A stretch of 64,000 bases of DNA, from NCBI GenBank assembly GCA_963697895.1, contig OY969100.1:1120001-1184000 (forward strand), in the 5' to 3' direction. Of the stretch, positions 1 to 56,051 are shown in pieces. Under the pieces are notes generated by a model. It was given only the letters and a program-made list of their open reading frames with translations, did not search any database and was not told the DNA's origin. The stretch's first letter is position 1. Each line of letters opens with the position of its first letter. Origin of the DNA: an uncultured Methanomicrobiales archaeon. Lineage in GTDB: Archaea > Halobacteriota > Methanomicrobia > Methanomicrobiales > Methanospirillaceae. The position numbers and the translations under genes are program-made.

Positions 1-98
1 TTGGTACCATCTGTCGGGGGATCCTCCCCCGTTGCCCTGTAAGCAATTCGTTCGGGCCTTTCCTGTCCTCATTGATGCGGGGGTCCTGGTTGTCTGTA

Positions 99-195
99 TT
101 GAAAAACCCCCGGACCCCTGATGTTACCGCTTGAAAAACCACCGGGACCCCTGATGTTCCCGCTTAAAAAACCCCCGGACCCCGGTGTCACCGGC
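99..195. repeat. imperfect tandem repeat, 3 x 32-33 bp
   Basis: Units ttgaaaaacccccggacccctgatgttaccgc (99-130), ttgaaaaaccaccgggacccctgatgttcccgc (131-163) and ttaaaaaacccccggaccccggtgtcaccggc (164-195). Confidence 0.85.
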
Positions 196-324
196 TTAAA
201 AGACTCCCGTCCAGAACTGGTACCGCCAGACTGCACCGCCGATTATCACCAACAGGATGAGTGCAAATAAGACTACCCACCAATACCATTTCATGCTCTT
301 CCCTCCCGGAAAAAAATAGATTTT

Positions 325-4453: not shown

Positions 4454-4640
4454 TATCCTGAGACCTTCTGAAGGTTTGAAGATTTTCCCGGGGCGCATCC
4501 TCCCGGGAGAGAAAAATAATTGCGACCGTTCATTCCAAAAAGTCTCTTTCCCCAACCCGGGGTCTATTGTGACCCGGCCGGTATTCCGATAATTTTATAT
4601 TCCCAAATTATAATTCCCCAATATATATGGAGGGATAAAG

Positions 4641-5576
4641 ATGACAATGGATCGGCTCTCAAAGGCAGGGTATCAGGTTATCGCTGTTCCTGATACGGCA
4701 CTCACCCCCTGGACGATCATAGATGGGAATAAAGAAGAATTCAAGACCTTCGGTCCTATCTGGAAATTTACCAAAGAAAGTATACAGCCGGAGATAAACC
4801 AGGATATCATCGGACCTGATGTGTTACTGGAAGCATGCGACGACGTTATCGAAGCCAAAGCAGGATTTTCGATCCTGAACCGCCTGGGGCTGAAAGGTGC
4901 GGACCTTTCTTCAGAGTTTAAGAATGCCAATACCCTGCGCATCGTGTACTCGTCGATACTGAAAGATGCGATCGACCTGATCGACGTAAGCAGATATATT
5001 AAAACGCATCTTCCCGAGAAAGATTATTTTACAGAAGATTTTTTTGAAGCGCTGAATGACAAGGGTGATGCAGCCATCATCTTCGAGACATTGAAGTCCA
5101 ACGAGATCAACTTTGTCGCCTATAACGAGAAAGGGCTTGAAATCAAGGTAAACGCGGAGATGGAAGTGGCAACCGCGAAAGGAGAATTCAGGATATCGGC
5201 CACGAATGCGAACACGCTCTGTTACAAGGGCTCGAAACCGCTTGTTTTCGCGTACCAGGCATTACCGTTCTGGATTAATGAAAAAAATGCCGAATATCAG
5301 TTCAATTTCAGTGTAAACGAGAAGGTCGAAGCGACGATCGGGGGATACCCGACTATGGGAGGGGGAGGAGGACACGGAATGAAAGGAGACCGGCACTATA
5401 TGCGGGGAGGCGGGGGGACGCCTCGTACGGTATCCCGGAATCAAAAACGAATTATAACTCCGGAATATGTCAAATCTCTCGAAGACAAGGGGCTGCTTGA
5501 GAAACAGTTCAAGTCGGTTTTTAAGCCGGACTACAAGATCTATTCTCCAAACACCCTGCTAAAAAAAGTGGGGTGA
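4641..5576 (+). CDS. prokaryotic gasdermin-like pore-forming protein
   Basis: Motifs co-linear with bacterial gasdermins: 'L..AGYQVIAVPDTALTPW', 'AGFSIL..LG....SEFKNANTLRI', 'IIFETLKSNE', 'LCYKGSKPLVFAYQA'. RBS ggaggga upstream; visibly more AT-rich than the flanks. Confidence 0.8.
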   Translation: MTMDRLSKAGYQVIAVPDTALTPWTIIDGNKEEFKTFGPIWKFTKESIQPEINQDIIGPDVLLEACDDVIEAKAGFSILNRLGLKGADLSSEFKNANTLRIVYSSILKDAIDLIDVSRYIKTHLPEKDYFTEDFFEALNDKGDAAIIFETLKSNEINFVAYNEKGLEIKVNAEMEVATAKGEFRISATNANTLCYKGSKPLVFAYQALPFWINEKNAEYQFNFSVNEKVEATIGGYPTMGGGGGHGMKGDRHYMRGGGGTPRTVSRNQKRIITPEYVKSLEDKGLLEKQFKSVFKPDYKIYSPNTLLKKVG

Positions 5577-5752
5577 AAAAGGGGATTTATCCCTAATTTT
5601 TACTGAAAGCAATGATGGTAGGAATTCTCGGTGTTCCGGTTACTCCGGATCGAAATAATTTACAAGCATTCCGGGAACTCTACAGCGAAATACAGCCCCC
5701 ATACCATGCAGATTGTCGAATCGGCGGGCTGACAAAAAAATAAATTCTCCGC

Positions 5753-7177
5753 TCATCCCAGCGGGGACAGGAGGCGTGAGAACTGCTCCTTGGCACGGAT
5801 CCAGCGGGACCGCTTCGCGTAGGTCTCGGGGGTGATCTCCGTGCACCGGTGGAGGTCGTCCAAGAAGGCCTTCTTCAGCTGCCCGGCATACTCCGCACTG
5901 TACAGGAAGGCGTTCGCCTCGAAGTTGAGCCGGAATGACCGGATATCCCAGTTTGCGCTCCCGACCGAGGCCGCCTGCCCGTCGACCACGACGGTCTTTG
6001 CATGGATGAAACCGTTGTCGTAGGTGTACGCCTTCACCCCGGAATCGAGGAGATCCCCGATGAACGACAGCGTCGACCAGTACACGAACGGGTGATCGGG
6101 CTTGCAGGGGATCATGATCCGGACATCGACCCCGGTGAGGGCGGCAATACGTAAGGCGTCGCTGATGCTCTCGTCCGGGATGAAGTACGGGGTCTGGATG
6201 TAGATCGATTCGGTTGCACCGGTGACCAGTTTCAGGTATCCCTCCTTGATCTGGTTATAGCGGGCATCCGGGCCGCTCGAGACCGTCTGGACCGCACAGG
6301 TCCCGGTCCCCGGGATACGGGGGAAGTAAACCGGGTCCGGGGTGAGCTTGTCCTTTGCCGCGTAGTTCCAGTCGAGGATGAACCGGAGCTGCAGGCCGAG
6401 GACCCCCGGCCCGTCGATCTTCAGGGCGGCGTCCCGCCAGTCCCCGAGCGGTCCCTTGCCCAGGTATTCCTCGCCGATGTTGTACCCGCCGATATACCCG
6501 GTCTTCCCGTCGATGACCGCGATCTTCCGGTGGTTCCGGTAGTTGATCGTGTAGATCCGCGGGAAGAAGTCGGCATGTTTTCCCCCGGCCTCTTCGAGCT
6601 CGCGGAGCTGCTTCTTTTTGATCTTCATCCCGAGGTGATCGGAGAGGAGCCGGACCTCGACCCCTTCCCGTGCCTTCTCTGTAAGGAGGGCGATCACCTC
6701 CCGCCCGAGCGGGTCGTCCCGGATGATATAATACTGGAGATGGACGTGGTGGCGGGCGCCCCGGATCGCGTCCAGGAGTGACCGGAACTTCTCGGTCCCG
6801 TCCGTGAAGACTGTGATCCCGTTCTTCTCGGTCAGGATTGCCCGGTTGTTCTCCAAAAACATCCGGATGACCGGTTCGTACCGCCGGACCACCGGATCCT
6901 TCGAATCCGCAATCAGCCGGTCGAGATCCTCCACCTGGGCGGCGACGAGGTCCTGGATCCGGCGGTCATCCTCGGCTTTTAAGGTGAAGAGATGCCGCTT
7001 GGTCCAGTTCTGGCCAAAGAAGAGGTAGAGAAAGAACCCGACGACCGGGAGGAGCAGAAGGACGAGGATCCAGCCCAAAGCCGAGGACGGGCTCCTCCGC
7101 TCGAAGAATACGAGCATGAAGGCAAGGATGTACTGGACGATCAGGAATATTTCGACGATGGTCAGTCCGAGAGCCAT
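5753..7177 (-). CDS. cls: cardiolipin synthase (PLD superfamily)
   Basis: N-terminal PLDc_N TM pair ('W...LLLPVVGFFLYLFFG') and two HKD motifs, 'HRKIAVID' and 'HAKTVVVD'. Confidence 0.92.
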   Translation of the reverse strand: MALGLTIVEIFLIVQYILAFMLVFFERRSPSSALGWILVLLLLPVVGFFLYLFFGQNWTKRHLFTLKAEDDRRIQDLVAAQVEDLDRLIADSKDPVVRRYEPVIRMFLENNRAILTEKNGITVFTDGTEKFRSLLDAIRGARHHVHLQYYIIRDDPLGREVIALLTEKAREGVEVRLLSDHLGMKIKKKQLRELEEAGGKHADFFPRIYTINYRNHRKIAVIDGKTGYIGGYNIGEEYLGKGPLGDWRDAALKIDGPGVLGLQLRFILDWNYAAKDKLTPDPVYFPRIPGTGTCAVQTVSSGPDARYNQIKEGYLKLVTGATESIYIQTPYFIPDESISDALRIAALTGVDVRIMIPCKPDHPFVYWSTLSFIGDLLDSGVKAYTYDNGFIHAKTVVVDGQAASVGSANWDIRSFRLNFEANAFLYSAEYAGQLKKAFLDDLHRCTEITPETYAKRSRWIRAKEQFSRLLSPLG

Positions 7178-7564: not shown

Positions 7565-8707
7565 ATGTTGTACCGGAAGATGCAGAAGGCCGCCCCGGAA
7601 CTCTCGATCCTCGGGTTCGGGTGCATGCGCCTCCCCCTGCGGGAGAGCGGGCAGATCGACGAGGAACAGGCGACCGGCATGATCCGCTCCGCCATCGACC
7701 GGGGCGTGAACTATGTCGATACCGCGTACCCCTATCACAACGGCGAGAGCGAGCCGTTCGTGGGGAGGGCTCTGGCAGATGGGTACCGCGAGCGGGTGAA
7801 TCTCGCGACGAAGCTCCCGAGCTGGCTGATCAAGACCCGGGAGGACATGGACCGGTACCTCGACGAGCAGCTCGTGCGGCTGCAGACGGACCATATCGAT
7901 TTCTACCTCCTCCATGGCCTGGTACAGCCGTTCTGGGAGAACCTCTCGTCGCTCCGGGCCACGGAGTTCCTCGACGACGCGATCGCGGACGGCCGGATCC
8001 GGTATGCCGGGTTCTCGTTCCACGGCACCCTCCCCCTCTTCAAGGAGATCGTCGATGCGTACGACTGGACGTTTGCCCAGATCCAGTACAACTACATGGA
8101 TGAGCACTACCAGGCGGGTACGCCCGGGCTCCGGTACGCGGCGAAGAAGGGACTCGGGATCGTGATCATGGAACCGATCCGGGGCGGCCTCCTTGCAAAG
8201 GAGATCCCGGGGATAGCGGAGATCTGGGAGAGGGCCCCGGTCGAACGACCGCCCGCGGAGTGGGCGCTCCGCTGGGTCTGGAACCACCCCGAACCGACCG
8301 TCGTCCTCTCCGGCATGTCGACGCCGGAACAGGTCGATAAAAACATCGCGTGGGCGGAGAACGGCCTCCCCGGTTCACTGACGAAGAAAGAGCTCGGCCT
8401 GTACACCAAGGTCAGGAAGGAGTTCAAATCCCGGGCCGTCATCCCCTGCACCGGGTGCCAGTACTGCATGCCCTGTCCGCACGGGGTGAGCATCCCGGAG
8501 TGCTTCGAGTTCTTCAACCGCGGGCACATGTACGGGGATGCGGAGGATACCCGCCAGATCTATACGATGTTTCTCGGCGGGTTCTTCGACGGGATTCCCG
8601 GGTATGCATCGGTCTGCCAGGAGTGCGGCGATTGCGAGGAGAAGTGCCCGCAGGGCCTCCCCATCCGGGAGAACCTGAAGAAAGTGGCGGCATATTTCGG
8701 GAAATAA
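7565..8707 (+). CDS. aldo/keto reductase with C-terminal Fe-S domain
   Basis: 'LGFGCMRLP', 'DTAYPYH', 'CTGCQYCMPCP' and 'CQECGDCEEKCP'. Confidence 0.9.
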   Translation: MLYRKMQKAAPELSILGFGCMRLPLRESGQIDEEQATGMIRSAIDRGVNYVDTAYPYHNGESEPFVGRALADGYRERVNLATKLPSWLIKTREDMDRYLDEQLVRLQTDHIDFYLLHGLVQPFWENLSSLRATEFLDDAIADGRIRYAGFSFHGTLPLFKEIVDAYDWTFAQIQYNYMDEHYQAGTPGLRYAAKKGLGIVIMEPIRGGLLAKEIPGIAEIWERAPVERPPAEWALRWVWNHPEPTVVLSGMSTPEQVDKNIAWAENGLPGSLTKKELGLYTKVRKEFKSRAVIPCTGCQYCMPCPHGVSIPECFEFFNRGHMYGDAEDTRQIYTMFLGGFFDGIPGYASVCQECGDCEEKCPQGLPIRENLKKVAAYFGK

Positions 8708-8781
8708 CGAGGAGTGCTGTTGCAGATGCGAAGCCTGGATGCATGGGCAGTTCACGGAATGGAGGGTCTCTGGTGATCGGT

Positions 8782-9675
8782 ATGAAAGAACCGGAACATA
8801 AAACGAATCCGACCTTTGCGTTGGTCCTCGGCGGGGGCGGCCTGCTGGGGGCTGCTTGGGAGGCAGGATTGATTGCCGGCATCGCAGAAGAAGAAGCCGG
8901 AATTACCCGGGCGGACCGGCTCATCGGGACTTCCTCTGGTGCGATTATCGGGTTGCAGATAGCTCTCGGACGAGCACCAGGGGACATTTTCCAGGGCCAG
9001 ATCGCTATGGCGGAGGATTACATAAAACAAAATCCTGTCCGGCCGGAGAGCAGTCCGTCACCGGCCGGGCAACCTCCCATTATTCAGGAGATCCTGAAAG
9101 CGGCTCTCGAGGGTGATGTACCCCGGGAATTGCTGGCAAAGATCGGCAGGATAGCGCTCGAGGCTCCCGCACTCCCCGAAGAACCATTCGTTGCCCAATT
9201 TCAGCCGCTCCTCAAACCGGGCGAGAGGTGGCCCGATCGATTCGTCTGCATCGCACTCGATGTGGAGGACGGCACCCTCGCGGTCTGGGACAAAGATTCC
9301 CGGGTTGATCCGGTTCGTGCAATTGCGGCAAGTGCTGCCGCTCCGTTCGTGGTGACCCCGATTCAGATCCATGGTCACCGGTACATGGACGCCGGTCTCC
9401 GGTCAACGACAAACGCCGACATTGCAAAAGGATTTGACCGCGTTGTTATTGTGGCACCGTCTGCTGCGTTCATGCCTGAGTTGAAAATACCGGCAAAGCG
9501 GGAGGTTGCTATGATTGAACAGGCGGGAGGAAAGGCTATCCTGATCACGCCGGACAAATATTCAACGGAGGCGATGGGATTCAATCCCATGGATGCAGCG
9601 CGAAGCGGGGCAGTGGCAAGGACAGCGTTTAAACAGGGTAAAGAAGAATCGGGGGCGATAAAAGAGTTACTCTGA
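8782..9675 (+). CDS. patatin-like phospholipase
   Basis: 'LVLGGGG', 'GTSSG' and 'YMDAG'; start placed at ATG 8782. Confidence 0.88.
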   Translation: MKEPEHKTNPTFALVLGGGGLLGAAWEAGLIAGIAEEEAGITRADRLIGTSSGAIIGLQIALGRAPGDIFQGQIAMAEDYIKQNPVRPESSPSPAGQPPIIQEILKAALEGDVPRELLAKIGRIALEAPALPEEPFVAQFQPLLKPGERWPDRFVCIALDVEDGTLAVWDKDSRVDPVRAIAASAAAPFVVTPIQIHGHRYMDAGLRSTTNADIAKGFDRVVIVAPSAAFMPELKIPAKREVAMIEQAGGKAILITPDKYSTEAMGFNPMDAARSGAVARTAFKQGKEESGAIKELL

Positions 9676-12069: not shown

Positions 12070-12885
12070 TTGAAAGGAGGAGCTCCCACGCCGCTGATCG
12101 AATTCCCCCCGGATCAGGATTATCGCGGAGAGGGTATTTCGCAGGGACTTGCCCGGGGCATGCTTGTCTCTGCCGACGGGAGGAATATCACCGGGGAGGG
12201 GATGGGTATCGGCGCTGTCGCCCTGAAGGACGCCCGGTTCTCCTACTTCTCCCGGGAGTGCACCACGACGGTGCACGGGCCGGACCGTATGGAAAAGGCC
12301 TATCTCATCGATACCCGCATGCTCTGGGGCCGGAAGGATTCCCCCTCGGTCTCCCTGACCCGGTTCATGGAGCGGGTGAACAACGGGTACATGCGATGGC
12401 CCGTCCTCCAGTATCTCCTTCCCGTGGGATCTTCCGCGAAGAATCTCCTCGGCCTCCGGCCTGTCTTCGAACCCATCCCTCCGGTCGCCGAGGGACGGTT
12501 CATCTACCGCATAACGGGGAACCGGATCGAAGTCTCCTGCACGATCCGCCCCCTCGCCGGGCGTCTGCCATCCGTGTATATCCTCAGTGAACTTGCCGCA
12601 GATTCGTTCACCCATGCGTTCTCGGGGGGAACGGTGACGAAACCTCCTTCCGGGTGGGTCCGGCATGAACCCGGGAGCGACCTGTACGACCCGGTTCACC
12701 GGCTCCGGTTCACGTTCTCCCCGGGTTCATCAGGGGGATCGGCCCCTCCCACGGTCTGGTGGGGGCGGGAGCATACGAAGAACCTCCGGTGGGCGGGCTA
12801 TTCCCTGGAATTCCCCGAGGGGGAGGAGTCAGGAAAACCTGTTTCGTGCAACTACACGGTCTGTCTCCGGGAGGAATCCCCGTGA
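12070..12885 (+). CDS. hypothetical protein coupled to the radical SAM gene
   Basis: 271-aa ORF whose stop overlaps the next GTG (GTGA). The true start may be ATG 12012 with an indel near 12065. Confidence 0.65.
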   Translation: MKGGAPTPLIEFPPDQDYRGEGISQGLARGMLVSADGRNITGEGMGIGAVALKDARFSYFSRECTTTVHGPDRMEKAYLIDTRMLWGRKDSPSVSLTRFMERVNNGYMRWPVLQYLLPVGSSAKNLLGLRPVFEPIPPVAEGRFIYRITGNRIEVSCTIRPLAGRLPSVYILSELAADSFTHAFSGGTVTKPPSGWVRHEPGSDLYDPVHRLRFTFSPGSSGGSAPPTVWWGREHTKNLRWAGYSLEFPEGEESGKPVSCNYTVCLREESP

Positions 12886-14321
12886 AGGGCGTAGGAGGGC
12901 TCGCACTGGCACGGGTCGATGCGGCCCTGCCGGGAGAGATCCCGGAGCGTGACGGTGGCGTTGCGCTCATATTCCCGTATCTCCGCGAGGAAGATCCGGT
13001 CGAACCCGAAAAACTGTTTCCCCCCCTCTCCGTCGCGTATCTCTCCAGCCAGCTGAAGGAGCGGTCGGTGCCGGTATCGGTGTACGACGGGACCTTCCGC
13101 TCCCCCGATGAGATCATCCGGGACGTGGCCCGTGAAGAACCCGCGATCGTCAGCATCTACCTGATGATCACGATGGTCCGGAACGGATCGTACCTCCTTG
13201 ATTCCCTGAAAAGACTGCTACCCGACACGCTCTTTATCACCGGCGGGCCTCTCCCGACCCTCTACCCGGTGCGGTTTGCCAATACATTCGATATCGTCTT
13301 CCGGGGGGAGGGCGATCTCACCGTCGCCCGGTTCTGCGACGAGTACCGGACTGCCGGGTGCACCCCGGCCGACCTCTCCGCCCTGGACCTCTCTTCCTAC
13401 CGGGGCATCTACCGGCACCGGGGAGAGAAGATAGTCAGCGTGCCGCCGGTCCACCACCCGGTTTCCGTCATCGAAGCGCTCCCGCTCCCCGACCGGAGCG
13501 GCTTCGACCACCGCCGGTACCAGGAGTTCTGGGAACGCACCGCCGGGTGCCGGATGACGACGATCCTGATCACGCGGGGGTGCCCGTACTCCTGTGATTT
13601 CTGCTCGAAACCCGTCTGGGGAAATGATTACCGGAAACCCTCCCTGGACCGGGTGTTTGCCGAGATCCGGGAGATCCTCGCGCTCGGGTACAACCGGCTC
13701 TGGATCGCGGATGACTCGTTCACCCTCGATACCGGGTATCTCCGGGAGTTCTGCACGAGCAAGGTCCGGGAGGGGCTCCCGTTCACCTGGGTCTGCCTCT
13801 CGCGGGTCGACCGGCTCGATTCGGCGATCGTCGGTCTCATGCGGGATGCCGGGTGCGTGCGGGTCTACCTGGGGCTCGAGTCCGGAAACGATGCAACACT
13901 CCGGCTCATGGGCAAGCAGGCGACGGTTGCGGAGGGGATCGAGGCGGTCCGGCTCTTCCGGGAGGCAGGGATCGAGACCTCGGCCTTCTTCATCGTCGGG
14001 TACCCGGGCGAGACGGAGCAATCGGTGGATGACACCCTTGCACTTGCCTCCTCTCTCCCGCTCGACGAGATCTCGATCAACGTCCCCTTCCCTCTTCCGG
14101 GATCCCCGCTCTTTTCCCGGGTGGGCTCCGTCGACACCACGGCAGACTGGGACAAGGCCAACGATATCACCTTCATTTATCAATCCGAATTCGACGAATC
14201 CGTGTTACGGGAGAAGATCCAACGGGCCGGGGACCTGTTCCGGGAAAGAAAACGGGAACGGAAAGAGAGAGAAAAGCCGGGGGTGATCTTTCCGGGGAAT
14301 GCCGGGGACTTTGTCCGGTGA
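12882..14321 (+). CDS. B12-binding domain radical SAM protein
   Basis: 'PPLSVAYL', 'GGPLPT', 'RGEGD', 'TRGCPYSCDFC' and 'GLESG'. Confidence 0.9.
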   Translation: MKGVGGLALARVDAALPGEIPERDGGVALIFPYLREEDPVEPEKLFPPLSVAYLSSQLKERSVPVSVYDGTFRSPDEIIRDVAREEPAIVSIYLMITMVRNGSYLLDSLKRLLPDTLFITGGPLPTLYPVRFANTFDIVFRGEGDLTVARFCDEYRTAGCTPADLSALDLSSYRGIYRHRGEKIVSVPPVHHPVSVIEALPLPDRSGFDHRRYQEFWERTAGCRMTTILITRGCPYSCDFCSKPVWGNDYRKPSLDRVFAEIREILALGYNRLWIADDSFTLDTGYLREFCTSKVREGLPFTWVCLSRVDRLDSAIVGLMRDAGCVRVYLGLESGNDATLRLMGKQATVAEGIEAVRLFREAGIETSAFFIVGYPGETEQSVDDTLALASSLPLDEISINVPFPLPGSPLFSRVGSVDTTADWDKANDITFIYQSEFDESVLREKIQRAGDLFRERKRERKEREKPGVIFPGNAGDFVR

Positions 14322-14598
14322 CACGATTCACGAAGGAATGCAGGGTGATACGTAAATTGACACCGGACGAGGGACAGATGTCATCCATACGAAAACAGAA
14401 GGGAAGAGGGAAATTTTCCACACGCAGGGAAATTGGGGGATCCTTGTCAGCCGATACAGGGAAATTGCAGACATGTCTGGTTCATTTCAACAGGAAAACA
14501 TCCTGTGGCGAGAATACACCACTCCTGCCGGCTGATACCAGGTTCCCGAAAATCCATATCATTTTTTAATCTGTCTGCTTACATCTTCTGGAAACCAG

Positions 14599-15792
14599 AT
14601 GCCGTCCACCCAGCTTCCCGCTTTTCATCTCATGGCAAAACCCGGGGGATCCCGGTGCAACCTGGCCTGCCGGTATTGCTTCTACCTCGGTAAACGGGAG
14701 CTGTATCCGGGAAGCCGGTTCCACATGTCCGATGAAGTCCTTGAAGAGTACATACGGCAGACCATCGGGGCCCATCGCATCCCGGAAGTCACGTTTGCAT
14801 GGCAGGGTGGTGAGCCCACCGTTCTTGGTCCTGACTTCTTCAGAAAGGCGATTGAACTGCAGAAGAAGTATTGCAGACCCGGGATGGTGATCCATAACAC
14901 CCTCCAGACGAACGGTACCCTGCTCGACGACCAGTGGTGCGAATTTTTCCGGAAAAACGGGTTTCTCGTCGGTATCAGCATCGATGGACCAAAGGATCTG
15001 CACGACGCCTGCAGGACAGATGCACAGGGCAGGGGTACTTTTGAACGCGTGATGCAGGGGCTCTCTCTCCTGAAAGAGCATCATGTTGAGTTCAATATCC
15101 TGTGTACCGTCAATGCGGTGAACGGGGACCACCCTCTTCTCGTCTACCGCTTCTTCCGGGATGAGGCGAAGGTGCAGTTCATCCAGTTCATCCCGGTGGT
15201 GGAACGTGACCCTCAGACGGGTGAAATGGCACCCTGTTCCGTGAGGCCGGACCAGTTCGGGAAATTCCTGATCGGGGTCTTTGATGAATGGGTACGACAT
15301 GACGTGGGAGCGGTATATGTCCAGCAGTTCGATACCGCCCTTGCCTGCTGGTACGGCGAACCCCATGGAATTTGCGTTTTTTCGCCCACCTGCGGGCATG
15401 CGATGGTGATCGAGCACAACGGGGATATCTACTCGTGCGATCATTTCGTCAATCCTGAGCACCTGCTCGGGAATATCCTGGTCACTCCGCTGGCAGAGCT
15501 GGTCAACAGCGGGAGACAATCACAATTTGGCCGTGATAAACGCGAAACACTCCCGAAACACTGCCGGGACTGCCCGGTCCTCTTCGCATGTCAGGGTGAA
15601 TGCCCGAAGAACCGGTTCGCGATAGCACCCGGTGGGGAACCCGGCCTGAATTATCTCTGTGAAGGCTACCGGATGTTCTTCTCGCATATTACCGGACCGA
15701 TGAAGTTCATGGTACGCGAATTAACAGCCGGTCGGCCGCCGTCGAATATCATGAAGTTCGTTGCGAGCCGGAATATCTCTGATACTCAATGA
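14599..15792 (+). CDS. anaerobic sulfatase maturase-type radical SAM/SPASM protein
   Basis: 'CNLACRYCFY', 'WQGGEP', 'QTNG', 'YSCDHFV' and 'C..C......GECPKNRF'. Confidence 0.92.
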   Translation: MPSTQLPAFHLMAKPGGSRCNLACRYCFYLGKRELYPGSRFHMSDEVLEEYIRQTIGAHRIPEVTFAWQGGEPTVLGPDFFRKAIELQKKYCRPGMVIHNTLQTNGTLLDDQWCEFFRKNGFLVGISIDGPKDLHDACRTDAQGRGTFERVMQGLSLLKEHHVEFNILCTVNAVNGDHPLLVYRFFRDEAKVQFIQFIPVVERDPQTGEMAPCSVRPDQFGKFLIGVFDEWVRHDVGAVYVQQFDTALACWYGEPHGICVFSPTCGHAMVIEHNGDIYSCDHFVNPEHLLGNILVTPLAELVNSGRQSQFGRDKRETLPKHCRDCPVLFACQGECPKNRFAIAPGGEPGLNYLCEGYRMFFSHITGPMKFMVRELTAGRPPSNIMKFVASRNISDTQ

Positions 15793-40541: not shown

Positions 40542-40755
40542 TTAGTTTCCCTCCTGGCCCAATATCAGTTCGGGATCTGAATCCCGAAGTTGGCCTGTAG
40601 TGAAATACCTGTTTTCATTTATATACGTTTGGCACGGCGCAATCAATTGGTTCTGATCGGTAGATGCGTGGTACCACTCCACTCTAACCCGAACCGGGGA
40701 AGATTGATTAAAAAATTGAATGTATTCTGTAAGGGAGGGGCGTCCGGAATACCGG

Positions 40756-42379
40756 TCAAAACCCTTTTTCGAGCCCTTCGTCGATCGAAGACCTCTTCTC
40801 CCGGTTCAACGTCGCCACATAGTCCTCGAACTTGTGGATCCGGGTGCTCACCGGGAACGGGATGCCGATGGTGCTGATGATCGCCTCGCCCGCGGTCGAG
40901 GGTCTGGATCTCGATCTCCATCCGCGAGAGGTCCTGTTTTGCGCTCCCCATGATGATATCCCGGTCCCCGCGGTCCCCGAGGCCCATCACGACGAAGGTG
41001 TTGATCTGGGCGAGGACCTTCGGGTCGACGTTCTTCGGCTGCTGGGTGACGACGCAGAGCCCGACCCCGAACTTCCGCCCTTCCATGGCGCACTCCCGGA
41101 ATACCTGGGTGGAGGAGCCGCCGCTCGCGAGCACCCGCTGCGCCTCCTCGATCGTGATCAGCACCTGGTGAGATGCCTCCCGCCGGTCGTCGATCCCGAA
41201 GCCCCGTGCCTCGGACCGGTGTTTCTCCATGATCATGCGGGTGATGACCGAGAGGACGAAGAGTTCGCTCCGTTCGCTCATGTCCGGGATATCGATCAGG
41301 ACCACCCGGTTGTCGTGGAGGTTCGTGAGGATCTCGGGGACCGACGACCCCTGGGTCCGGAAGAAGGCCCGGTTTCCGTTGACGAGGTTCTCGATGTGGC
41401 TCTTGATGACCCGGACCGGCCCGCCCATGGAGTTCCGGATCTTCCAGGCGAGGCCGTCCTCCGTGATCCCGGCCGCTTCGGGATCCTTGATCGGGAATAT
41501 CTCGGGGTCGACCGTCTGGAAGAACTCGATGATCCTCTTCCCTTTCGTGCCGGAGAACGCCTCGACGATCTCGTGCTGGGCGGCAGAGAGGTCGTAGAGG
41601 ATCGAGAGGTCGCTGATCCTGAAGTCGTCGTACTCGAGGGAGAGCCGGTTCATCGCGTACTTCCGGCGGTCCTCCTCGCCCCGGATCGTAAAGATGGCGA
41701 GCCCGTCCTTTCCTTTCGTGTAGTGGACGAGGCCGTTCGTCGGCTCCCCCGTTGAGGACTTCCCGCCGCTCACGTATTCCCCGTGGGGATCGACGATCAG
41801 GAGCCCGAACTTCTGTTCCTTCATGCAGGACGCACAGAAGGTCTTCATGAAGTTGGACTTTCCCATCCCCGTCGTCGCAAAGACCCCCATGTGCTGGGGG
41901 AGGACCCGGCTCGGGATCCGGACCGCGACGTCCCGGATCACGTCCTGGCCGCTCCGCATCAGGCCGACCTCGATCTCGCCCATCTGCCGGGTCAGGAACC
42001 GGAAGTCCTCTGCCTCCGGGTCTTCGACGATCGAGAACTTCGAGGGGATCGTCCGGGGCTTGTGGAATGTCCCGTCCCCGTTGTCCACGAACCCCAGCGG
42101 GACCGCATCGACGGTGAAGAAGACGTCCTCGCCGAGGCCGTAGAACTCCTCCGCATACACCCGGGTGTCCCACCGGGTATCGGCGAAGTTGCTGTCGTGG
42201 GAGAGGTCGGTGATCTTTGCAAAGAACGTGACGTCCTTCGCCGGGTCTGTGATCTTCTTGATGTCCCCGATGTAGAGAGTGGCATCGTAGGGCGCAATGA
42301 ACCGGTACGCTAGCACGCTGCGCCCGATCAACCGGTACTTCGAAGGGTCCTTCCCGTCAATATCTTGCAAATTCATCAT
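40756..42379 (-). CDS. herA: HerA-family DNA translocase ATPase (frameshift near 40890)
   Basis: 'HMGVFATTGMGKS', 'DPHGEY', 'IEEAQR', 'EGRKFGVGL..TQQP'. The C-terminus EAIISTIGIPFPV...LEKGF* is in another frame. Confidence 0.88.
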
Positions 42380-43386
42380 GGTAATCTCCGAACAGGATAT
42401 CATAGGTCTGTCGTTCGATCCCCGTCCCGGCGATCCGCCGCATCAGGTCGGACCGGACCTGTTCCACGAGCTCCTCGGTGAGCACGACCGTGCGGTGGGC
42501 ATCGAAGAGGGGGAACGGGTACCCGGGGATCCGCCCGTCCCCGGAACAGGCCGCGAGACGGTCCATGATCCCCTGCACCCGTGCATCCGGTAGACCCGGG
42601 GGGAGTTCGATCTTCAGCGGGGACCGGGCACGCGGGTGCAGGCAGGCGATATACATCTGCCCGTGCTGCCACCGGGGGAACTGGGCGTGATCGAGGATGG
42701 CCGGGTCGATCCGGACCCACCAGGGGGCACGGATCTCCCGGGTGCTCTGCAAGCCCCTTGACGGAGGGGAGGACCGGGTGGCCGCCGCCCCAGGTCGCCG
42801 TCGTCCGCTTGCTCACCCCGGCGAGGTCGATGTCCCGGGCCCGGCAGGCCTCTTCGATCCGGACGAGCACCGGGTCGTGGCTCGCGTGGGAGACCCGCAA
42901 GGGACCGTCACGGAGGAGGAGGGCTCCCCGCTCGAGGTTTCCTGCCATCTGTTCGGCGATCCAGTACTCGAGCGTGTCCCGGAGGACCCCCGCCGTCCGG
43001 GTCCGGTCCTCGTTCCCGAGCGGGGTCCCCGGAGCCTCGCCGAAGCATTCACGGTACAGTTCGGGGAAGTCCCGGTTCTCCGCACCCGGGCCGATGATCG
43101 CGAACGTTAACGGCGAGAGAGACCTCCGGCCCCGTTTCCTCCCGTAAAAGGTGCTCTGGGCGGCCCGGAAGAGGACGAGTGCCATGCTCCCCGATTCGAT
43201 GAGGACGACGTTGGACCCGTCGACCGCACAGATCTCCCCGGACTCCTTCGGCGTGCAGGGGTGGAAATCTCCCGGGGATATCCCGCTCACGGCACCGAAC
43301 CGCTCGACCAGGTCCGCCGGGACCGTCTCCCGGATCCGGTTCGCAGCGGTGTCCACCGAACGGGCATAGTCCGGGTTATTTGGCAT
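42357..43386 (-). CDS. nurA: NurA nuclease (frameshift near 42745)
   Basis: 'AVDGS', 'LLRDGPL' and 'GVSKRT', then 'GYPFPLFDAH' in the second frame. Confidence 0.88.
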
Positions 43387-43514
43387 TTAAGCAACCTCCG
43401 TTATTCTGCAGGGGAGGGCGAAATCCGGGTCGTTAGTCATCACGCAACCTCCTTTACCCTGATTGCGGGGTCGTGACCCTGGTCTTCCGGCATCACGCAA
43501 CCTCCTTTACCCTG
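43387..43514 (-). repeat. triplicated rad50/nurA junction encoding two 17-aa micro-ORFs
   Basis: ggaggttgc(g/t)t(g/a)a..atg occurs three times with a 53-54 bp period; ORFs at 43440-43493 and 43387-43440. Confidence 0.8.
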
Positions 43515-45935
43515 CTTGCAAGGTCGCTCCCGATCTCGACCATGAGGGTGTTCGTGAACTCACCCTGCATCTCCGGGATGTGGGAGATCAGGACGATCTG
43601 GGGGAACCGGGACTCCTGTGTCCGCAGCGCGGTGAGGAGGTTTGTCCGCCGCTCCTCGTCCTGGCTCCCGAATATCTCGTCGAAGATGAGGAGCGTGCTC
43701 TCGTGCACCCGGTGGAGCTCCGCGAGGTACCGGGAGAGGGCGATCCGGAGGGCGACCGCGATATCGTCCTGTTCCCCGCCGCTGAACCGGTCGATCGGGT
43801 AGTCGTTGTCGATGTCCCGGACAAGGAGGTTGAAGTCCCCGTCGAGGAGGACCTGCTCGTACCGGCCCCCGGTGATCTCGCCGATGATCCGGCTCACTTC
43901 TCCCTCTATCCGGCTCCGGACGACCTGCATCAGGTAGAGCACGTACTCGCCGATGACCGTCCGGGTCAGCCGGAGGAGGTCGATCTCCTCTTTCAACGTC
44001 CCGACCTTCCGTTTCAGTCCGGCGATCTTTTCCTCGTCTCTCTCGTACTGGGCGATCTTCTCTCCGGTATGCCGGAGGCGTTCCGACGTCCTCGCGATCC
44101 CGGTCCCGACCGTACCGATGGCTGAATCTGTCTCCGCACGCAGTTGTTCGAGTCTCGCCCCGGCCTCCGGGTCGAAGGCGGACTGGTCGATCATGGCTTT
44201 GAGATGTACGAGTTCGCCCTGTTTCTCCGTTACCTGTCTGCCCAGGTCGGCGACCTGTGCCTTCAGCGCCGTACCGTGGGCGATCTGTTTCCCGAGCTCG
44301 ATGAAGCGTTTCTGGACCTTCTCCAGCCCGGCGACCTCCCGCTCTGTCTTCGTATACACCGCCTCGTCGTACCCGGTTTCGCGGATCCGGAGGCCGACGG
44401 ACTGCATCGCATCTTCCTTTGCCTGTAATTGTGCGAGCAGCTCCCGGAGATCGTCCTCAAGAACGGGCCTCGTCTTCAGCCTCTCGGAGATGCCCCGGAT
44501 CTCGTCGAGTGCCGGTTTCTGGTGGATAATCCGCTCCTTCTCGGCCGTCACAGCCTCCTGGTCCTCGAAGACCTGTAACCCCTCCTGCTCGATGCACTCG
44601 AGCCGGGAGGTAAACTCCTCCTCGATGCGGCCGAAATGGCTGCCGAGCGTCTGGCGGCAGAGGGGGCATACCCCGTCCTCCCCGGCGTCCTGTATCTTGT
44701 TCCAGTTGGCGAGCACCTTGTTCCTCTCGGAGACGAGCTGCTCCCGCCTTGCCGAGAGCGTCCCGATGGTGCCGAGGACCTCCGATTCCCTCGCCCGGAT
44801 CGCATGTTCCAGGCCGGTGTCCGGTACCCCGGGCCCGATCCCGAAGAGGCTCCTGATCCCCGCGAGCAGCGATGCGAGCCGTTCTTTGTCCCGGTCGAGG
44901 GCAGCGATCTTCGCCTTCTCCTTCTCCACCCTCGCGGTTAACGCGGCGCACTCCTGGCCGGCGAACCGCTGCTCGGCGGAGAGGCGCTCGAACTCCGCTT
45001 TTCGCCTCCGCAGTTCCTCGAGCGTCCGTTTCTTCTCTTCGCAGCCGGGAACTTCACGCTCGAGTTCCCGGTACTCCTGTTCCTTTCCGGCAAGGTCTGC
45101 CAGTTGTGCCGTAATCTGGTCCCGCTGCCGGACGAGTCCCCCGCTCTCGACCGTAACCGCCCGGTGCCATTCGACGAGACGGGTATACTCGGTCTTCTGC
45201 TCGAAGAACTGCTGCAGCCCGGCGGCGACCTGTTTTTTCTTCCCGTCGAGGGCTTCGTGCTGCTTCTCCAGCTCCCGGATCGCGGCCTGGTCCGTGGCGA
45301 CCGATGCCTGCAGGTTCTTCAGCACTTCGGGGTCCTGCCGCTCCGCGAGTCCTTTCAGTTCCCCTTCGAGGAGCTGGAGCTCCCGGTCCTTCGCATCGAC
45401 CCGCTCTTTCAGGAGCCTGTCACTCTCCGTCTTCAGGTAGTCGATACCGAGCGCCCGGAGGAACCATTCCTTCCGCTTTCCCGGGCGTGTTCTCGAGGAG
45501 GGTGAGGAGGTCTTTCTGGGCCGCATAGACCGTGTTCCGGAAATCGACCGGCCCCATCCCGAGCACCCGACGGACCTCGGTCTCCACCTGGCTCACCCCG
45601 GTCGCCCGGAGCTTCCCGCCCGCGTGAAACGTCGCGTCGTGCTGGGTCGCGGACTTCGTCTTCCGGAACGTCCGGAGGACCGTGTACTCGTCCCCGCCGA
45701 TCCGGAAGTCCAGCCGGACCTCGCACTTCTCCTTCGGGGACGCAAACGAGGAGACGATGTAATCCGAGGATATCCCCGTCGCCTGCACCCCATAGAGGGC
45801 AAAGAAGATCGCCTCCACGATACTGCTCTTCCCCGTCCCGTTATTCCCGAGGATTCCCGTGATCCCGTCCCTGAACCGGATCTCCTGGTCCCGGAACCGC
45901 TTGAAATTCTTGAGGCAGATCCGGTCGATGATCAT
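43493..45935 (-). CDS. rad50: Rad50/SbcC ATPase (frameshift near 45480)
   Basis: 'GNNGTGKSS', zinc hook 'CPLC', 'FSGGE' and 'LIFDEIFGSQD'; ATG overlaps the mre11 stop. Confidence 0.92.
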
Positions 45936-47107
45936 TCTGCATCCTCCCGGTGCTGGTCCATGACCGTCCGGAGCACGTCGAGGCCGCACCGTGCGACGTA
46001 CTCCTTCTGCTTCGCACTGATCTGCTGTTTCTCCAGGAAAGACGAGAACTCCTGCAGGTAATCGATCGCCCGCACGTCCTGCTGGAGCGGGACGACATCC
46101 CCGCCCTGATCCCGGGAAGGCTGACGGATCTTCAGGTCGAGGAGCTGTTCCCGCACGCAGGCAAGGTCCCGCATATCGATTCCCTTCCCGTGCTCCCGCG
46201 AGATCCCGTCGAGCGTCACCTGGGCCATCGCAAGCGGAGGCACTCTCTTTTCCGCGACCCGGGAGACGATCTCGGCGGTGATATCCTGCGGGTGCACCCC
46301 TTCGCAGGAGATCGTCCCCAGGTCGACCATCGGGGTCCGGGGGAGTTCGAGGGGGCGGACACCCGCAGGTCTCCGGCAGTTTTCACCCGGGGTGCACTTA
46401 TCCAGGTCGACGAGGAGACCGCCCTTCGCATCGGAGATCTCGCCGTAGGTCAGGTATTCCATCGACCCCGAGTACCAGGCATTGCCGGTGATCTGCGACT
46501 GCCGGTGGTAATGCCCGAGTGCGATATAGTCGAACCGGTCCGAGAGGATGGTATTGTCCAGCTCGTGCTCCGCCACCGTCGCGAGCCGCTTGTCCTTGAT
46601 CGCGGTCGCGAGCCCGTGCGTCACGAGCACGTTATGATGGTCCCGGGAGAGTTCGACCTGGTCGTACGCGGCCCGGTAATCCTCGGGCCGGAGCATGTTC
46701 GGGATCAGGTGGAAGACCGTATCCCCGATCTCCACGTTCTCGTACCGGAACGAGTAGGCCGCGGTGATATGCCCCGGATGATAGGTCAGCACGGCAAAGG
46801 GGGAGGTTGTGTACCGGGTCTTCACCATGCTGTGGTTCCCCGCGATGACCACGAACGGGATCCCCGCGTTATGGAGCCGTTCGAGCGCTTCGAGGACCGT
46901 CGTATATGCCCGGGTCTTCGGCTTCACCTGGTCGAAGAGGTCCCCTGCATGGACGAGCACGTCGGGTTTCTCTGCGATGATCCGCTCGATCGCCGAGAGA
47001 AAATTGTCATAGATCTGCTTCTCGCGGAGGTTCATCCCGGATTCCGGGTCGAGCCGGTTGAACTGCGAGAGGCCGAGGTGGGTATCGGCGATGTGGACGA
47101 CGTGCAT
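45932..47107 (-). CDS. mre11: Mre11/SbcD nuclease
   Basis: 'HIADTHLG', 'AGDLFD', 'IAGNH', 'THG' and 'YIALGHYH'. Confidence 0.93.
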   Translation of the reverse strand: MHVVHIADTHLGLSQFNRLDPESGMNLREKQIYDNFLSAIERIIAEKPDVLVHAGDLFDQVKPKTRAYTTVLEALERLHNAGIPFVVIAGNHSMVKTRYTTSPFAVLTYHPGHITAAYSFRYENVEIGDTVFHLIPNMLRPEDYRAAYDQVELSRDHHNVLVTHGLATAIKDKRLATVAEHELDNTILSDRFDYIALGHYHRQSQITGNAWYSGSMEYLTYGEISDAKGGLLVDLDKCTPGENCRRPAGVRPLELPRTPMVDLGTISCEGVHPQDITAEIVSRVAEKRVPPLAMAQVTLDGISREHGKGIDMRDLACVREQLLDLKIRQPSRDQGGDVVPLQQDVRAIDYLQEFSSFLEKQQISAKQKEYVARCGLDVLRTVMDQHREDAE

Positions 47108-52998: not shown

Positions 52999-53200
52999 TC
53001 TGGGATGAAAGAAGGGGTTTTCTGATCACCGCACGGTTTCGGGCCTGCGTTATTCAACATTTGGCAATGGCGGTTCCGGCAAGGCGAATATCCCGTAGTT
53101 TATAAAAGAAATAGCGTATCATTTTCATATCGCAACACAGCTCCGTGCTATTTATCTGTCACAGTCGTGAATGATTGAAATATCAAGAGGCCATAGAAAA

Positions 53201-56051
53201 ATGCCCGATCCAACCGAAGCACAGACCCGGCGGGAGAAGATCGATCCCCTCCTCAAAGAACAGGGATGGGACGTCAGGAACCGCTCCCAGGTTGTGCTTG
53301 AGGTCGATACCAGGCAGTCCGATTTTGTATCCCGTGATTACAAGACGGTGAAAGAGACTCTTAAAAACGATGAAGAAAGCAAATATGTCGATTATCTCCT
53401 CCTTGATTCTGCCGGTGCACCTTTGGCCATTGTCGAGGCAAAACGTACCTCGAAGGATTCTCACGTCGGGCAGAAGCAGGCCGAAGAATATACAGACGAT
53501 ATCAAACGACAGACCGGGAAGGAGGTTTTCATTTTTCTTACCAATGGCGACCAGATCATGTTCTGGGACCGGTCACGATATCCGCCCCGGTACGTAAAGG
53601 GTTTCTATTCCCGCCGGGACCTTGAACGGGTGAGGTTCCAGACATCGTTCGGCCAGATCCCAAAGGAGATTGAGATCGATCCCCACATCATCGACCGGGC
53701 GAGGGGTATCGAATGTGCAAAGAGAGTCGTTGAACATATTCACAAGGGGAACCGGAAAGGCCTGATCGTCATGGCAACCGGGACCGGGAAGACCCGGGTC
53801 GCCATGGCCATCATCGATGTCCTCATGAGAGAGAACCTTGTCCAGAAAGTCCTCTTTCTCACCGATCGGATCGCCCTCCGGGACCAGGCATTTGTCAAGG
53901 GGTTCAAGGCCTTTTTCCCGGAAGAATCAAAGGATAAAATCCTCTCCGGGATTTACAACCAGAATAAACGATTGTATGTCTCGACGATTCAGACTTTCCA
54001 GGAAATTTTTCTGGAAAAGACGAACGGAGTATATAACCTCTCGCCAGGTGAATTTGACCTGATCATCTCCGATGAGGCTCACCGGTCCATCTATCATAAG
54101 TGGCGTGATATCTTCACCTATTTTGACTCTATGCAGATCGGATTGACCGCAACTCCGGCAGACCTCATCGAGCGGGATACGTTCCGGTTCTTCGGATGCC
54201 AGGACCATTCCCCCACAGCTCTCTACACCTATGAGGAAGCAGTGGAGGACGGGGTTCTGGTTGATTTCCGGAAGGGTATCGTCAGTGCCCAGACCCATTT
54301 CAAGATACACGGGATTACTCCCCGCGACCTTACCGATGGAGAACGTCAGCGGCTCATCGATCAGGGAATCGATCCCGACGAAATCAATTTCGAGGGGAGC
54401 GATCTTGAGAAGAAAATCGCGGTGAAAGGAACTTCCGAAGCGATCGTGCGTGAGTTCATGGACAGTCTGTCTTCGTGACGAGTCCGGGATGCTTCCGGCA
54501 AAGTCGATCTTCTTTGCGATCTCGAAGAAGCATGCCTCCCGGCTGCAGGAGGCATTTGATTCGCTCTATCCGGAATACCGGGGCGATTTGGCAAGGACGA
54601 TCGTATCCGAAGATTCGCGGGCCTCTACCCTGATCAGAGAGTTTGAGGACAAGTCCCTACCGAGAGTTGCGATCTCAGTGGATATGCTCGATACGGGTAT
54701 CGATATTCCGGAGGTGAGCAACCTGGTCTTTGCAAAGCCGGTCTTCTCGAAGATCAAATTCTGGCAGATGATCGGGAGGGGCACCCGGTCGAACGCTGCC
54801 TGCACGCACTTTAACTGGTTGCCGAACGGGAAGAAAGAAAGGTTCCTGATCTTCGACTTCTGGAATAATTTCGAATACTGGGAGATGCATCCCGAGGGAG
54901 AGGTCCCGGCACAGGTCGAGGCGATGATGGGAAGGATCTTCCTGACCCGGCTGAAGCAGCTCGAATATGCGATGAACCGGGGGGATGAAGCCCTTGCCTC
55001 ATCAGTCCGTGAGAAGATCAGGGACGATATTCAGGCCCTGCCCATGGAATCGGTGACTGTCCGAGAACACAAGAAGGATGTGGAAAAAGCCCTCTCTCCG
55101 GATCTCTGGGACAATGTGGGCCTCGATCCTCTCTCGTTTCTCAGGGAACGGATCCTGTCGCTGATGCGGTTCCGGTCCGGAGGGAACCCTGAGACGGCCT
55201 CCTTCACCCTGAAGTGTGAGCAGCTGGGACTAGCCTCGCTCCAGCACAACGACCGGGAGATCGAACGGCTGAAGGGGGATATCGGCACCATGGTAGACTG
55301 TCTTCCGGAGACGATCAACGCAGTCCGTGAGATGGCCGATGTGAAACGGATGGTACTCTCCCATTCGTTCTGGGACACGCTCAGCTATGACGACAGCCAG
55401 AAAATGATGGCCGACCTCGGTCCCCTGATGCTCTATATGCAGAAGGAACCCACCCGTACGATCATTATCGACATGGCTGACCCGATCGAGAAAGTCCGGG
55501 TTCTATCGCTGCATGAAGAGAAGGAGGAGGAATACATCACCCACTACCGCGAGCAGGTCGAGGCCCGGATCAAGGCCCTTGCCGACCGTAACTTGGCGAT
55601 GAAGAAGATCCGGGAGAACACGCCGCTCACACATGACGACCTGGTATCTCTCGAAGAGACGCTGCTCGGACCGGAGTTCGGCGAAGAGGTCGAGCCTGGC
55701 GAGTATGGGGCCGGAGGGGTGACGGTACGGGATTCGGTCCTGGTCCGGTTCATCCGGCAGGTGCTCGGGCTCTATGAGCAGCCAGACCCCGAAACGTTGA
55801 TCCGGGACGCGTTCCAGACCTTCATGATCGAGCAGAACCGACAGTATTCCGCCGACCAGCTCACCTTTATTCGGATGATCCAATCGTTCTTTGCGAAGAA
55901 GCACCATATCGAGTTCCGAGATTTCTACGAGCCGCCGTTCATTATTCTTGGGTCGAGCGTGCCGATGCCGATGTTCTCGGAGGAGGACCTCAATACATTT
56001 GTGGGAATTTGTAATCGGGTTGAGCGGCAACTGGTCGGGGCGGAGGCGTGA
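53201..56051 (+). CDS. hsdR: type I restriction subunit R (frameshift near 54467)
   Basis: 'VDYLL...IVEAK', 'MATGTGKT', 'DEAHRS', 'GLTATP', then 'VDMLDTGID' and 'QMIGRGTR'. Confidence 0.92.

Follow-up and report, generated by a model that had tools for sequence, protein, structure and literature searches.

Gasdermins are the executioners of pyroptosis, and their bacterial relatives have shown that protease-triggered pore formation is ancient. A gene of this family lies on the forward strand of a 64,000-nucleotide stretch (the window, numbered here from its first letter) of the genome of an uncultured archaeon of the Methanomicrobiales (GenBank assembly GCA_963697895.1, contig OY969100.1, positions 1,120,001 to 1,184,000); its features are collected in Table 1. 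An earlier note on this DNA had drawn attention to the last part of the gene (5280-5576, residues 214-311 and the stop codon) as an atypical gasdermin end, with about 100 residues behind the motif PLVFAYQA, among them an exposed glycine-rich linker and a basic, possibly folded terminus, in a protein that also lacks the N-terminal cysteine. The lengths agree with that description: PLVFAYQA occupies residues 200-207 and 104 residues follow it, the glycine-rich string being residues 238-259 and the basic end, ITPEYVKSLEDKGLLEKQFKSVFKPDYKIY, residues 272-301. The N-terminus, MTMDRL, is indeed free of cysteine, and the protein holds only two, C66 and, further on, C194.

The start of the gene is well delimited. 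The earlier note had allowed for an upstream in-frame start that would restore a cysteine, and this possibility is ruled out: the frame is closed by the stop codon at 4611-4613 and by a second in-frame stop at 4590-4592, and the nine codons between the nearer stop and the ATG at 4641 (FPNIYGGIK) include neither ATG, GTG or TTG nor a cysteine codon. A ribosome-binding motif precedes the start and a terminator-like hairpin overlaps the end, and the gene looks monocistronic.

Table 1. Features of the gasdermin gene and its product (window positions).
Feature	Position	Strand	Remarks
A/T-rich element TTTTATATT, possible archaeal TATA box	4593..4601	+	About 40 nt 5' of the start codon; read from sequence
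In-frame TAA stop 5' of the start	4611..4613	+	Frame reads ...PKL*FPNIYGGIK-MTMDRLS
Shine-Dalgarno-like motif GGAGGG	4629..4634	+	7 nt before the ATG at 4641; read from sequence
Gasdermin open reading frame	4641-5576	+	311 amino acids
Gasdermin pore-forming core, residues 1-233, with shortened N-terminus lacking Cys	4641..5339	+	PADLOC, phmmer, AlphaFold2 and VIA-align
Variable loop, residues 234-261, presumed cleavage or release loop	5340..5423	+	pLDDT 45-57, low identity, variable length
Clade-specific C-terminal module, residues 262-311, predicted autoinhibitory plug	5424..5573	+	Conservation and predicted docking
P296-D-Y-K-I-Y-S302, the protein's most conserved motif	5526..5546	+	Invariance across the clade; contacts to the core
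Terminator-like signal of a hairpin and a T-run, which overlaps the stop codon	5570..5603	+	Consensus scan, not functional proof

The protein is a prokaryotic gasdermin, and its predicted fold is that of an autoinhibited N-terminal domain. Residues 3-233 match positions 7-237 of the 257 in the PADLOC profile for bacterial gasdermins (bGSDM; PDLC02986) at E 2.3e-33 and 113.8 bits, and the precomputed database label of the protein is PF26164. A phmmer search of the Protein Data Bank (PDB) finds the Vitiosangium gasdermin structures 7n51 and 8sl0 at E ~2e-11 (query residues 6-219 on chain residues 12-227), and a profile of the clade of close homologs described below finds them at E 1e-15. The AlphaFold2 (AF2) model, built on 135 sequences with a confidence (pLDDT) of 81 and a predicted template-modelling score (pTM) of 0.78, has as its best Foldseek matches in the PDB the structures 7n51, 7n52 and 7n50, all of inactive bacterial gasdermins, at E 2e-12 (7n51) to 3e-9. 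VIA-align superposes the model on 7n51 with Z 18.0 and a root-mean-square deviation of 3.5 over 239 aligned residues, model residues 1..305 following chain residues 7..260, and its superposition on the pore forms 8sl0 and 9a84 ends at about residue 225. Since the match to the inactive structure runs through the tail and that to the pore forms stops near 225, the model represents an inactive gasdermin whose tail is docked. The same layout, with a low-confidence loop and a tail at pLDDT 81-89, returns in a separate AF2 model of a 39%-identical homolog from a related genome (G639); on 7n51 that model reaches Z 19.3, 245 of 263 residues being aligned (model 2..312 on chain 4..266). L82, I101, L201 and F203 align to V89, F111, L211 and F213 of the Vitiosangium palmitoyl pocket, which stays hydrophobic. 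The family assignment of the earlier note is thus borne out by both the profile and the predicted fold.

Alignment of the clade, which consists of eight database members (51-88% identical) and the G639 homolog as a ninth (39% identical), divides the tail into two parts. The first is a variable loop, residues 234-261. In this protein 13 of its 28 residues are glycine; its mean pairwise identity is 0.30 against 0.64 in the core, one column of 28 (G243) is invariant, and its length across homologs ranges from 8 to 30 residues, with a single homolog at 8. The glycine fraction falls from 0.46 here to 0.17 in another clade member, only the closest relatives being glycine-rich, and the glycine-coding DNA contains no tandem repeat. 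The loop has the lowest AF2 confidence of the whole model (pLDDT 45-57) and is predicted to be disordered and exposed. It is flanked by strands 218-233 and 262-272, which are predicted to pair antiparallel through contacts such as 223:272 and 225:270; because the tail strand pairs in this way with the last strand of the core, the loop would be an extended hairpin turn. The exposure suggested earlier is therefore supported in the form of predicted disorder, and the loop, with the final hairpin of the core before it and the docking tail after it, is placed like the cleavage loop of the Runella gasdermin. The cleavage sites that had been proposed within it, R255-G256 (in YMRG) and K248-G249 (in MKG), are not supported: neither is conserved within the clade, the position of R255 being R, R, T, M, K, K or missing, and K248-G249 being KG in five of eight sequences and EG, SG or SE in the rest.

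The second part is a C-terminal module, residues 262-311, for which AF2 predicts a strand (262-272) and two helices (274-282 and 286-292) at pLDDT 78-86, followed by a terminal motif. Sixteen of its 50 columns are invariant, and identity reaches 0.71 over residues 273-295 and 0.84, the top of all segments, over residues 296-305. The module is basic, with twelve K/R against five D/E, and it is kept in the 39%-identical G639 homolog. Within the terminal motif all nine clade members keep P296, Y298, K299, Y301 and S302 (P-x-Y-K-x-Y-S), and residues 298-299 touch core residues 206-207 in the complex prediction described next. As judged from the clade alignment, the constrained feature of the tail is this module, which the earlier note overlooked, and not the glycine stretch; glycine-richness is, on the same alignment, a local peculiarity of the variable loop.

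Does the module dock on the core when the two are not joined by the loop? ESMFold2 prediction of core (residues 1-235) and tail (259-311) as two chains gave scores of 0.80, 0.78 and 0.81, with an ipSAE of 0.80, and the best of three controls gave 0.00. The score is the model's own confidence; its mark is passed by 116 of 157 solved complexes and by 2 of 215 mismatched pairs. The runs share at least 80% of their contacts, partner pLDDT is at least 78, and the interface of 147-158 predicted contacts brings together core residues 3-36, 112-121, 143-148, 206-210 and 220-235 and nearly all of tail residues 293-311. Three prediction lines thus agree, and the module is predicted to dock on the core like the known inhibitory peptide. 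What had been called a basic, possibly folded end is accordingly predicted both to fold and to dock, in two AF2 models, in their VIA-align superpositions and in the complex prediction, with the tail following 7n51 to its residue 260 at model residue 305.

How unusual is such a tail? In a MAFFT alignment of 157 gasdermin-family proteins, 45-60 residues usually follow the F-x-F/Y motif; in this clade there are 105-111, or 80 in one member, so that the tail is as atypically long as had been claimed. Among the 144 unfused rows of 235-330 amino acids, the seven longest tails all belong to the clade. Rows with the N-terminal cysteine have a median tail of 53 residues (4 of 82 reach 75 or more), and rows outside the clade that lack it a median of 57 (12 of 54). 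The module itself was sought by profile, by word-based search and in the ESM Atlas, all of limited sensitivity for a segment of 50 amino acids. The profile search, over 1.84 billion cluster representatives, gave 248 matches at E <=0.001, with a single representative, the clade's own, beyond 1e-30; among the best 150 of the 248, all but that representative stop at about profile position 240. The word-based search with residues 255-311 gave eight candidates, of which only five, all clade members, were returned as matches, and the ESM Atlas returned no usable match. Within the sensitivity of these searches, the module is clade-specific. A FastTree tree, which has local support only and long branches that were flagged, gives the clade a support of 100 and places it inside a weakly supported group of 31 rows, almost all without the cysteine and often long-tailed, that also holds three other archaeal sequences. 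A long tail and a missing cysteine are therefore not unique to the clade, which stands out as the extreme and has its own tail module.

The N-terminus departs from the usual family pattern, M-x-C-K-D-x-S-x-x-Y-L-N-x-x-G-Y in the 157-protein alignment. The chain begins three residues past the position aligned to Vitiosangium C4 (L6 corresponds to chain L12, and model residue 1 to chain residue 7), and clade members with longer N-termini have K, M, V or N near that position. With the cysteine missing, self-palmitoylation would not take place. The earlier note had proposed that such a loss would fit a host whose membranes are built of isoprenoid ether lipids. Archaea are largely without fatty-acyl lipid synthesis. 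A search with the PADLOC profile covered 301 genomes from the class, 401 from the phylum and 228 from the family. It found a gasdermin in ten archaeal genomes, all in one order, and in 10 of 10 no cysteine precedes the G-Y motif of the protein, not even when the open reading frame is taken at its greatest length. At least three archaeal lineages have cysteine-bearing nearest neighbours on the tree and carry F, V or D in its place (MLFKDS and MLVKDS, for example, as against MLCKDDS). So far the findings fit the proposal. However, 62 of the 144 family rows also lack the N-terminal cysteine, the tree implies at least 20 changes of this state, and a bacterial gasdermin without it, that of Gillisia, is described in a figure legend of the preprint by Johnson et al. 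(bioRxiv 10.1101/2021.06.07.447441); the comparison of archaea with bacteria is drawn solely from that published statement, the 149 representatives outside the clade being without taxonomy. Because cysteine-less gasdermins are this common, the lipid explanation is plausible but not demonstrated. Loss of the cysteine and length of the tail are not correlated (independent-pairs test, p = 1).

A second peculiarity, missed by the earlier note, is that the gene stands alone. No protease gene adjoins it, and the 53 open reading frames of the window contain no Pfam match to caspase-like C14/CHAT/C11, subtilase or trypsin-like proteases, the sole protease-family match being a YhfC intramembrane metalloprotease about 29 kb away. 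Across the whole genome no CHAT, C14, C11, S8, Trypsin_2 or C13 protease was found, with controls positive in every search; the search for Peptidase_C25 was uninformative, its control being silent. For the families tested, there is no partner protease. Of 50 published bGSDMs, 43 have a neighbouring protease (bioRxiv 10.1101/2021.06.07.447441).

The other archaeal gasdermins offer some perspective. The short ones (254-257 amino acids, without the cysteine) adjoin clan-CD protease genes in all three cases, a Peptidase_C11 (clostripain-family) gene in G173 and G706 and a CHAT gene in G014; in G706 a gene for a TPR protein lies next to the Peptidase_C11 gene. The types of partner protease that Johnson et al. 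name where they treat the subject do not include Peptidase_C11 (bioRxiv 10.1101/2021.06.07.447441). The longer ones (279-323 amino acids) have a canonical protease neighbour in 0 of 7 cases, in surrounding DNA of 4.2 kb to 64 kb, mostly 20 kb. They include four long-tailed proteins of 285-304 amino acids (in G094, G070, G008 and G691), near whose genes no canonical protease was seen and in which a variable Ser/Arg/Gly-rich loop is followed by an aromatic C-terminal strand (such as ...INFNAFEFI or ...MTFSPFRFI), which hints at a wider class of cysteine-less, long-tailed, stand-alone gasdermins. They also include the G054 gasdermin (279 amino acids, at ~4983-5810 of its own locus), whose gene has a GC content of 0.27 in a locus of 0.40, likewise with no canonical protease in sight; it is surrounded by many open reading frames without a Pfam match and by an ArdC-like/zincin metallopeptidase gene, and the locus may be an integrated mobile element. 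Short with a protease as against long and alone hints at two regulatory designs within one family; given the few and related genomes this is a pattern and not a result.

The host is a methanogenic archaeon. Its genome, one contig of 2.09 Mb with an estimated completeness of 93.85%, contains an archaeal small-subunit rRNA (1571.9 bits), McrA and the ether-lipid enzyme family PcrB/GGGPS. The gasdermin gene has a third-position GC content (GC3) of 0.556, compared with 0.78-0.87 in neighbouring genes, and at two other loci the GC content of the clade member likewise falls below that of the flanking DNA. Gasdermins are patchy in the host's family (7 of 228 genomes). The low GC3 together with this distribution suggests horizontal acquisition. 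No insertion signature was seen: there was no conserved synteny past the phospholipase D (PLD) gene in two relatives and there were no notable flanking direct repeats. Metagenomes yielded three short, near-identical contigs of one homolog, the viral contigs searched yielded no gasdermin relative, and of the gasdermin alignments run against genome contigs one gave no match, whilst a narrower one found a single record, identical to the contig of G008.

The immediate neighbours of the gene are a DUF998 membrane protein gene and a convergent cardiolipin-synthase-like gene with a PLDc_N and two PLD domains (5753-7177, minus strand), of which the genome has a second, 61%-identical copy. A patatin-like phospholipase gene (8350-9675, plus strand) follows past an aldo/keto reductase gene. 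This lipid-gene neighbourhood is probably coincidental, as it is not conserved in other clade members: three members have three different sets of neighbours, unrelated to each other and free of proteases, one of the homologs being beside an MNT/HEPN toxin-antitoxin pair and another between a methionine sulfoxide reductase gene and open reading frames of no known family. There is no recognisable defence island, PADLOC returning only generic PLD, patatin and radical-SAM similarities for the 16 open reading frames within 20 kb.

Elsewhere in the window, 12759-15792 (plus strand) holds two nearby radical-SAM genes, the first with a B12-binding and the second with a SPASM domain; PADLOC matches the latter weakly to prokaryotic viperins (E 2e-15), which probably reflects what radical-SAM proteins have in common. 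A cluster at 40646-47107 (minus strand) encodes HerA-like (DUF87), Rad50-like and Mre11-like (metallophosphoesterase) proteins, and its Rad50-like gene is split into a 189-amino-acid Walker-A piece (45423-45989) and a 677-amino-acid remainder (43496-45526) that overlap in different frames. About 48 kb from the gasdermin gene is a type I restriction-modification locus. Its R subunit likewise appears split into two overlapping open reading frames in different frames, 53171-54475 (HSDR_N/ResIII) and 54450-56048 (Helicase_C/EcoEI_R_C), both on the plus strand and followed by HsdS and HsdM genes; the split could be a frameshift or a sequencing error.

The reading that best accommodates these results, and which is judged probable by a modest measure, is that of a functional, horizontally acquired, stand-alone methanogen gasdermin from a small clade in which the autoinhibitory C-terminal region is enlarged and a loop serves as its release point. 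The core (residues 1-233) would be a pore-forming domain held inactive. The module would fold back on it: strand 262-272 would pair with the hairpin that ends the core, and beyond this strand two short helices and the P-x-Y-K-x-Y-S strand would cross the sheet toward the N-terminal strands, at the position that the inhibitory peptide of 20-30 residues takes in bacteria. If the bacterial systems are a guide, the docked tail would keep the core inactive; removal of the C-terminal peptide activates bacterial gasdermins (bioRxiv 10.1101/2021.06.07.447441). A cut in loop 234-261, or displacement of the module, would then free the core, which would oligomerise, perforate the membrane and kill the cell, again by analogy with bacteria. 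Because the genome is without the protease families that usually partner gasdermins, the trigger would have to come in trans, either from a non-canonical protease of the host, unlinked to the gene, or from an invading virus; this is the weakest link of the scheme. In a protein that would not be palmitoylated, the docked aromatic tail may conceivably take over the stabilising role of the lipid. For the step at the loop, proteolytic or displacement release of an autoinhibited pore-former is the most likely course.

Could the module be more than a plug? The main rival is release without proteolysis, in which the module, above all its P-x-Y-K-x-Y-S end, acts as a sensor and comes off the core when it binds a factor of virus or host or meets a physical cue, leaving the loop as a mere tether. 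Such a model would make sense of a genome in which the partner protease families were not found, of a terminal motif more conserved than a plain plug might need, and of a loop that shrinks to 8 residues in one homolog, so that it offers no conserved sequence for a cut; moreover, a single cut might not free a module held by 147-158 predicted contacts. However, all characterised bacterial gasdermins are activated by cleavage in the account of the preprint (bioRxiv 10.1101/2021.06.07.447441), no candidate gene for a ligand or partner is conserved beside the clade members, and the conservation of the motif is equally expected from packing in the hydrophobic groove of the core. Sensor-type activation is regarded as unlikely, while being the strongest of the alternatives.

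A role outside suicide or defence, whether in another membrane process such as controlled release or remodelling or as a selfish hitch-hiker on mobile DNA kept permanently inhibited by its large tail, appears improbable. It would suit the missing defence island and a gene that adjoins a PLD gene, with a patatin-like gene further on and no partner gene, but the neighbours differ in every clade member and the lipid-gene setting is not conserved, one homolog lies beside the MNT/HEPN pair, and patchiness and low GC3 are typical of defence or mobile genes. Even less can be said for the scheme of the earlier note, in which a trypsin-like protease of host or virus cuts a glycine bait after R255 or K248. 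The loop does lie, disordered and exposed by prediction, at the position of the Runella cleavage loop, and basic residues occur in a glycine context in this protein and its three closest relatives; yet neither site is conserved, G243 being the sole invariant loop residue, the genome searches for Trypsin_2 and S8 proteases found none, and the mapped Runella site has Leu at P1 (bioRxiv 10.1101/2021.06.07.447441). Least probable of all, at a very low level, is a decaying orphan of a lost protease partner, which could be imagined from the missing protease and from the C11 or CHAT genes that adjoin related short archaeal gasdermins, but which sits badly with a frame intact in nine of nine clade members down to 39% identity, with the strong and patterned conservation of core and tail, with the gene's own ribosome-binding site and terminator-like signal, and with the three of three members of readable context that are protease-less, suggesting that standing alone is the norm of the clade.

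Several points weigh against the favoured reading of an autoinhibited, stand-alone gasdermin released at its loop. At the level of family, the NCBIfam model prok_gasdermin gives 88.9 bits where its curated cut-off is 100, and the Pfam copy used has no match to the protein, which is therefore a divergent gasdermin member. At the level of structure, all statements are predictions: core and tail, paired in the complex test, come from the same protein, and because structures of its family have been solved the pass may partly reflect structure memory; AF2 confidence is below 50 for residues 299-311, though ESMFold2 puts them in the interface; and in sequence the tail resembles none of the inhibitory peptides of known structure, alignment ending at about residue 219. 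At the level of function, pore formation, toxicity and cleavage are proposed from these models, the proteolytic trigger is assumed on the model of the bacterial systems, and gasdermin perforation of an ether-lipid membrane is a supposition. At a genome completeness of 93.85%, proteases of families outside the search and open reading frames without a Pfam match remain possible partners.

A bolder version of the favoured reading can be put forward, tentatively and with the odds against it. The methanogen lineage may have dispensed with both a dedicated protease and a lipid modification, the aromatic plug replacing the palmitoyl group as stabiliser of the inactive state in an adaptation to ether lipids, and the hypervariable loop may be a bait cut by the proteases of archaeal viruses, so that a single gene would act as sensor and executioner and perforate the ether-lipid membrane. 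The locus makes several matters testable: how a gasdermin is triggered when its genome holds no partner protease, whether it works without palmitoylation, with an enlarged tail in compensation, and whether gasdermin pores form in an ether-lipid membrane.

The gasdermin family itself is known; what is new here is a protease-orphan archaeal clade of it with an enlarged, clade-specific tail that is predicted to be inhibitory. The earlier note was right in outline, on the exposed loop, the folded basic end and the loss of the cysteine in an archaeon, and wrong in its emphasis and its cleavage sites. Archaeal gasdermins have been detected in genomes only and never studied functionally, as one review states (PMC10989679), and a census preprint lists gasdermin among defence systems found in fewer than ten archaeal taxa (10.1101/2024.10.26.620412). 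No paper joining bGSDM with methanogens was found, with the supplementary tables of Johnson et al., which may list archaeal or cysteine-less members, lying outside the search; none treats gasdermin, archaea and Methanomicrobia together, among the matches listed; and on bacterial gasdermins and protease-independence only the 2021 Johnson preprint was found (bioRxiv 10.1101/2021.06.07.447441).

Set beside the bacterial gasdermins, the protein shares with those of Vitiosangium (7n51; pore forms 8sl0 and 9a84), Bradyrhizobium (7n50) and Runella (7n52) the inactive pore-former fold, as predicted, at Z 18.0, 14.4 and 13.8, and a C-terminal segment that in the prediction wraps the core after a flexible loop. 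It differs in having 78 residues past the core hairpin (234-311), where the published descriptions have a C-terminal domain of 29 amino acids in Vitiosangium and about 21 in Runella. Its loop is 28 amino acids long and not ~12, and its tail module, confined to the clade and without detectable sequence similarity to others, has 50 amino acids in place of an inhibitory peptide of 20-30. It also lacks the self-palmitoylating cysteine that most, but not all, members carry at position 3-4, and its host is an archaeon. Unlike the gasdermin-protease systems, it has no adjacent protease, none of the tested families in its genome and no defence island. In the missing palmitoylated cysteine it resembles the Gillisia bGSDM, which, going by the same figure legend, belongs to a bGSDM-protease operon in a bacterial host (bioRxiv 10.1101/2021.06.07.447441).

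Closer to home, the gasdermins of the same order (in genomes G173, G706, G014, G008, G094, G070, G691 and G054) are all cysteine-less like this one, and the longer among them likewise have no canonical protease gene beside their own, a variable loop and an aromatic C-terminal strand; the tail module is shared with the G639 protein only, the others being 17-27% identical in the core with unrelated tails. The comparison extends to mammalian GSDMD and GSDMA3, which have the N-terminal pore-forming fold in common with it (Z 9.7-11.1) as well as, on the favoured reading, C-terminal autoinhibition through a cleavable linker. Their inhibitory domain is helical and exceeds 200 amino acids in the published descriptions, whereas the archaeal protein is predicted to make do with a strand-helix-helix-strand module of 50.

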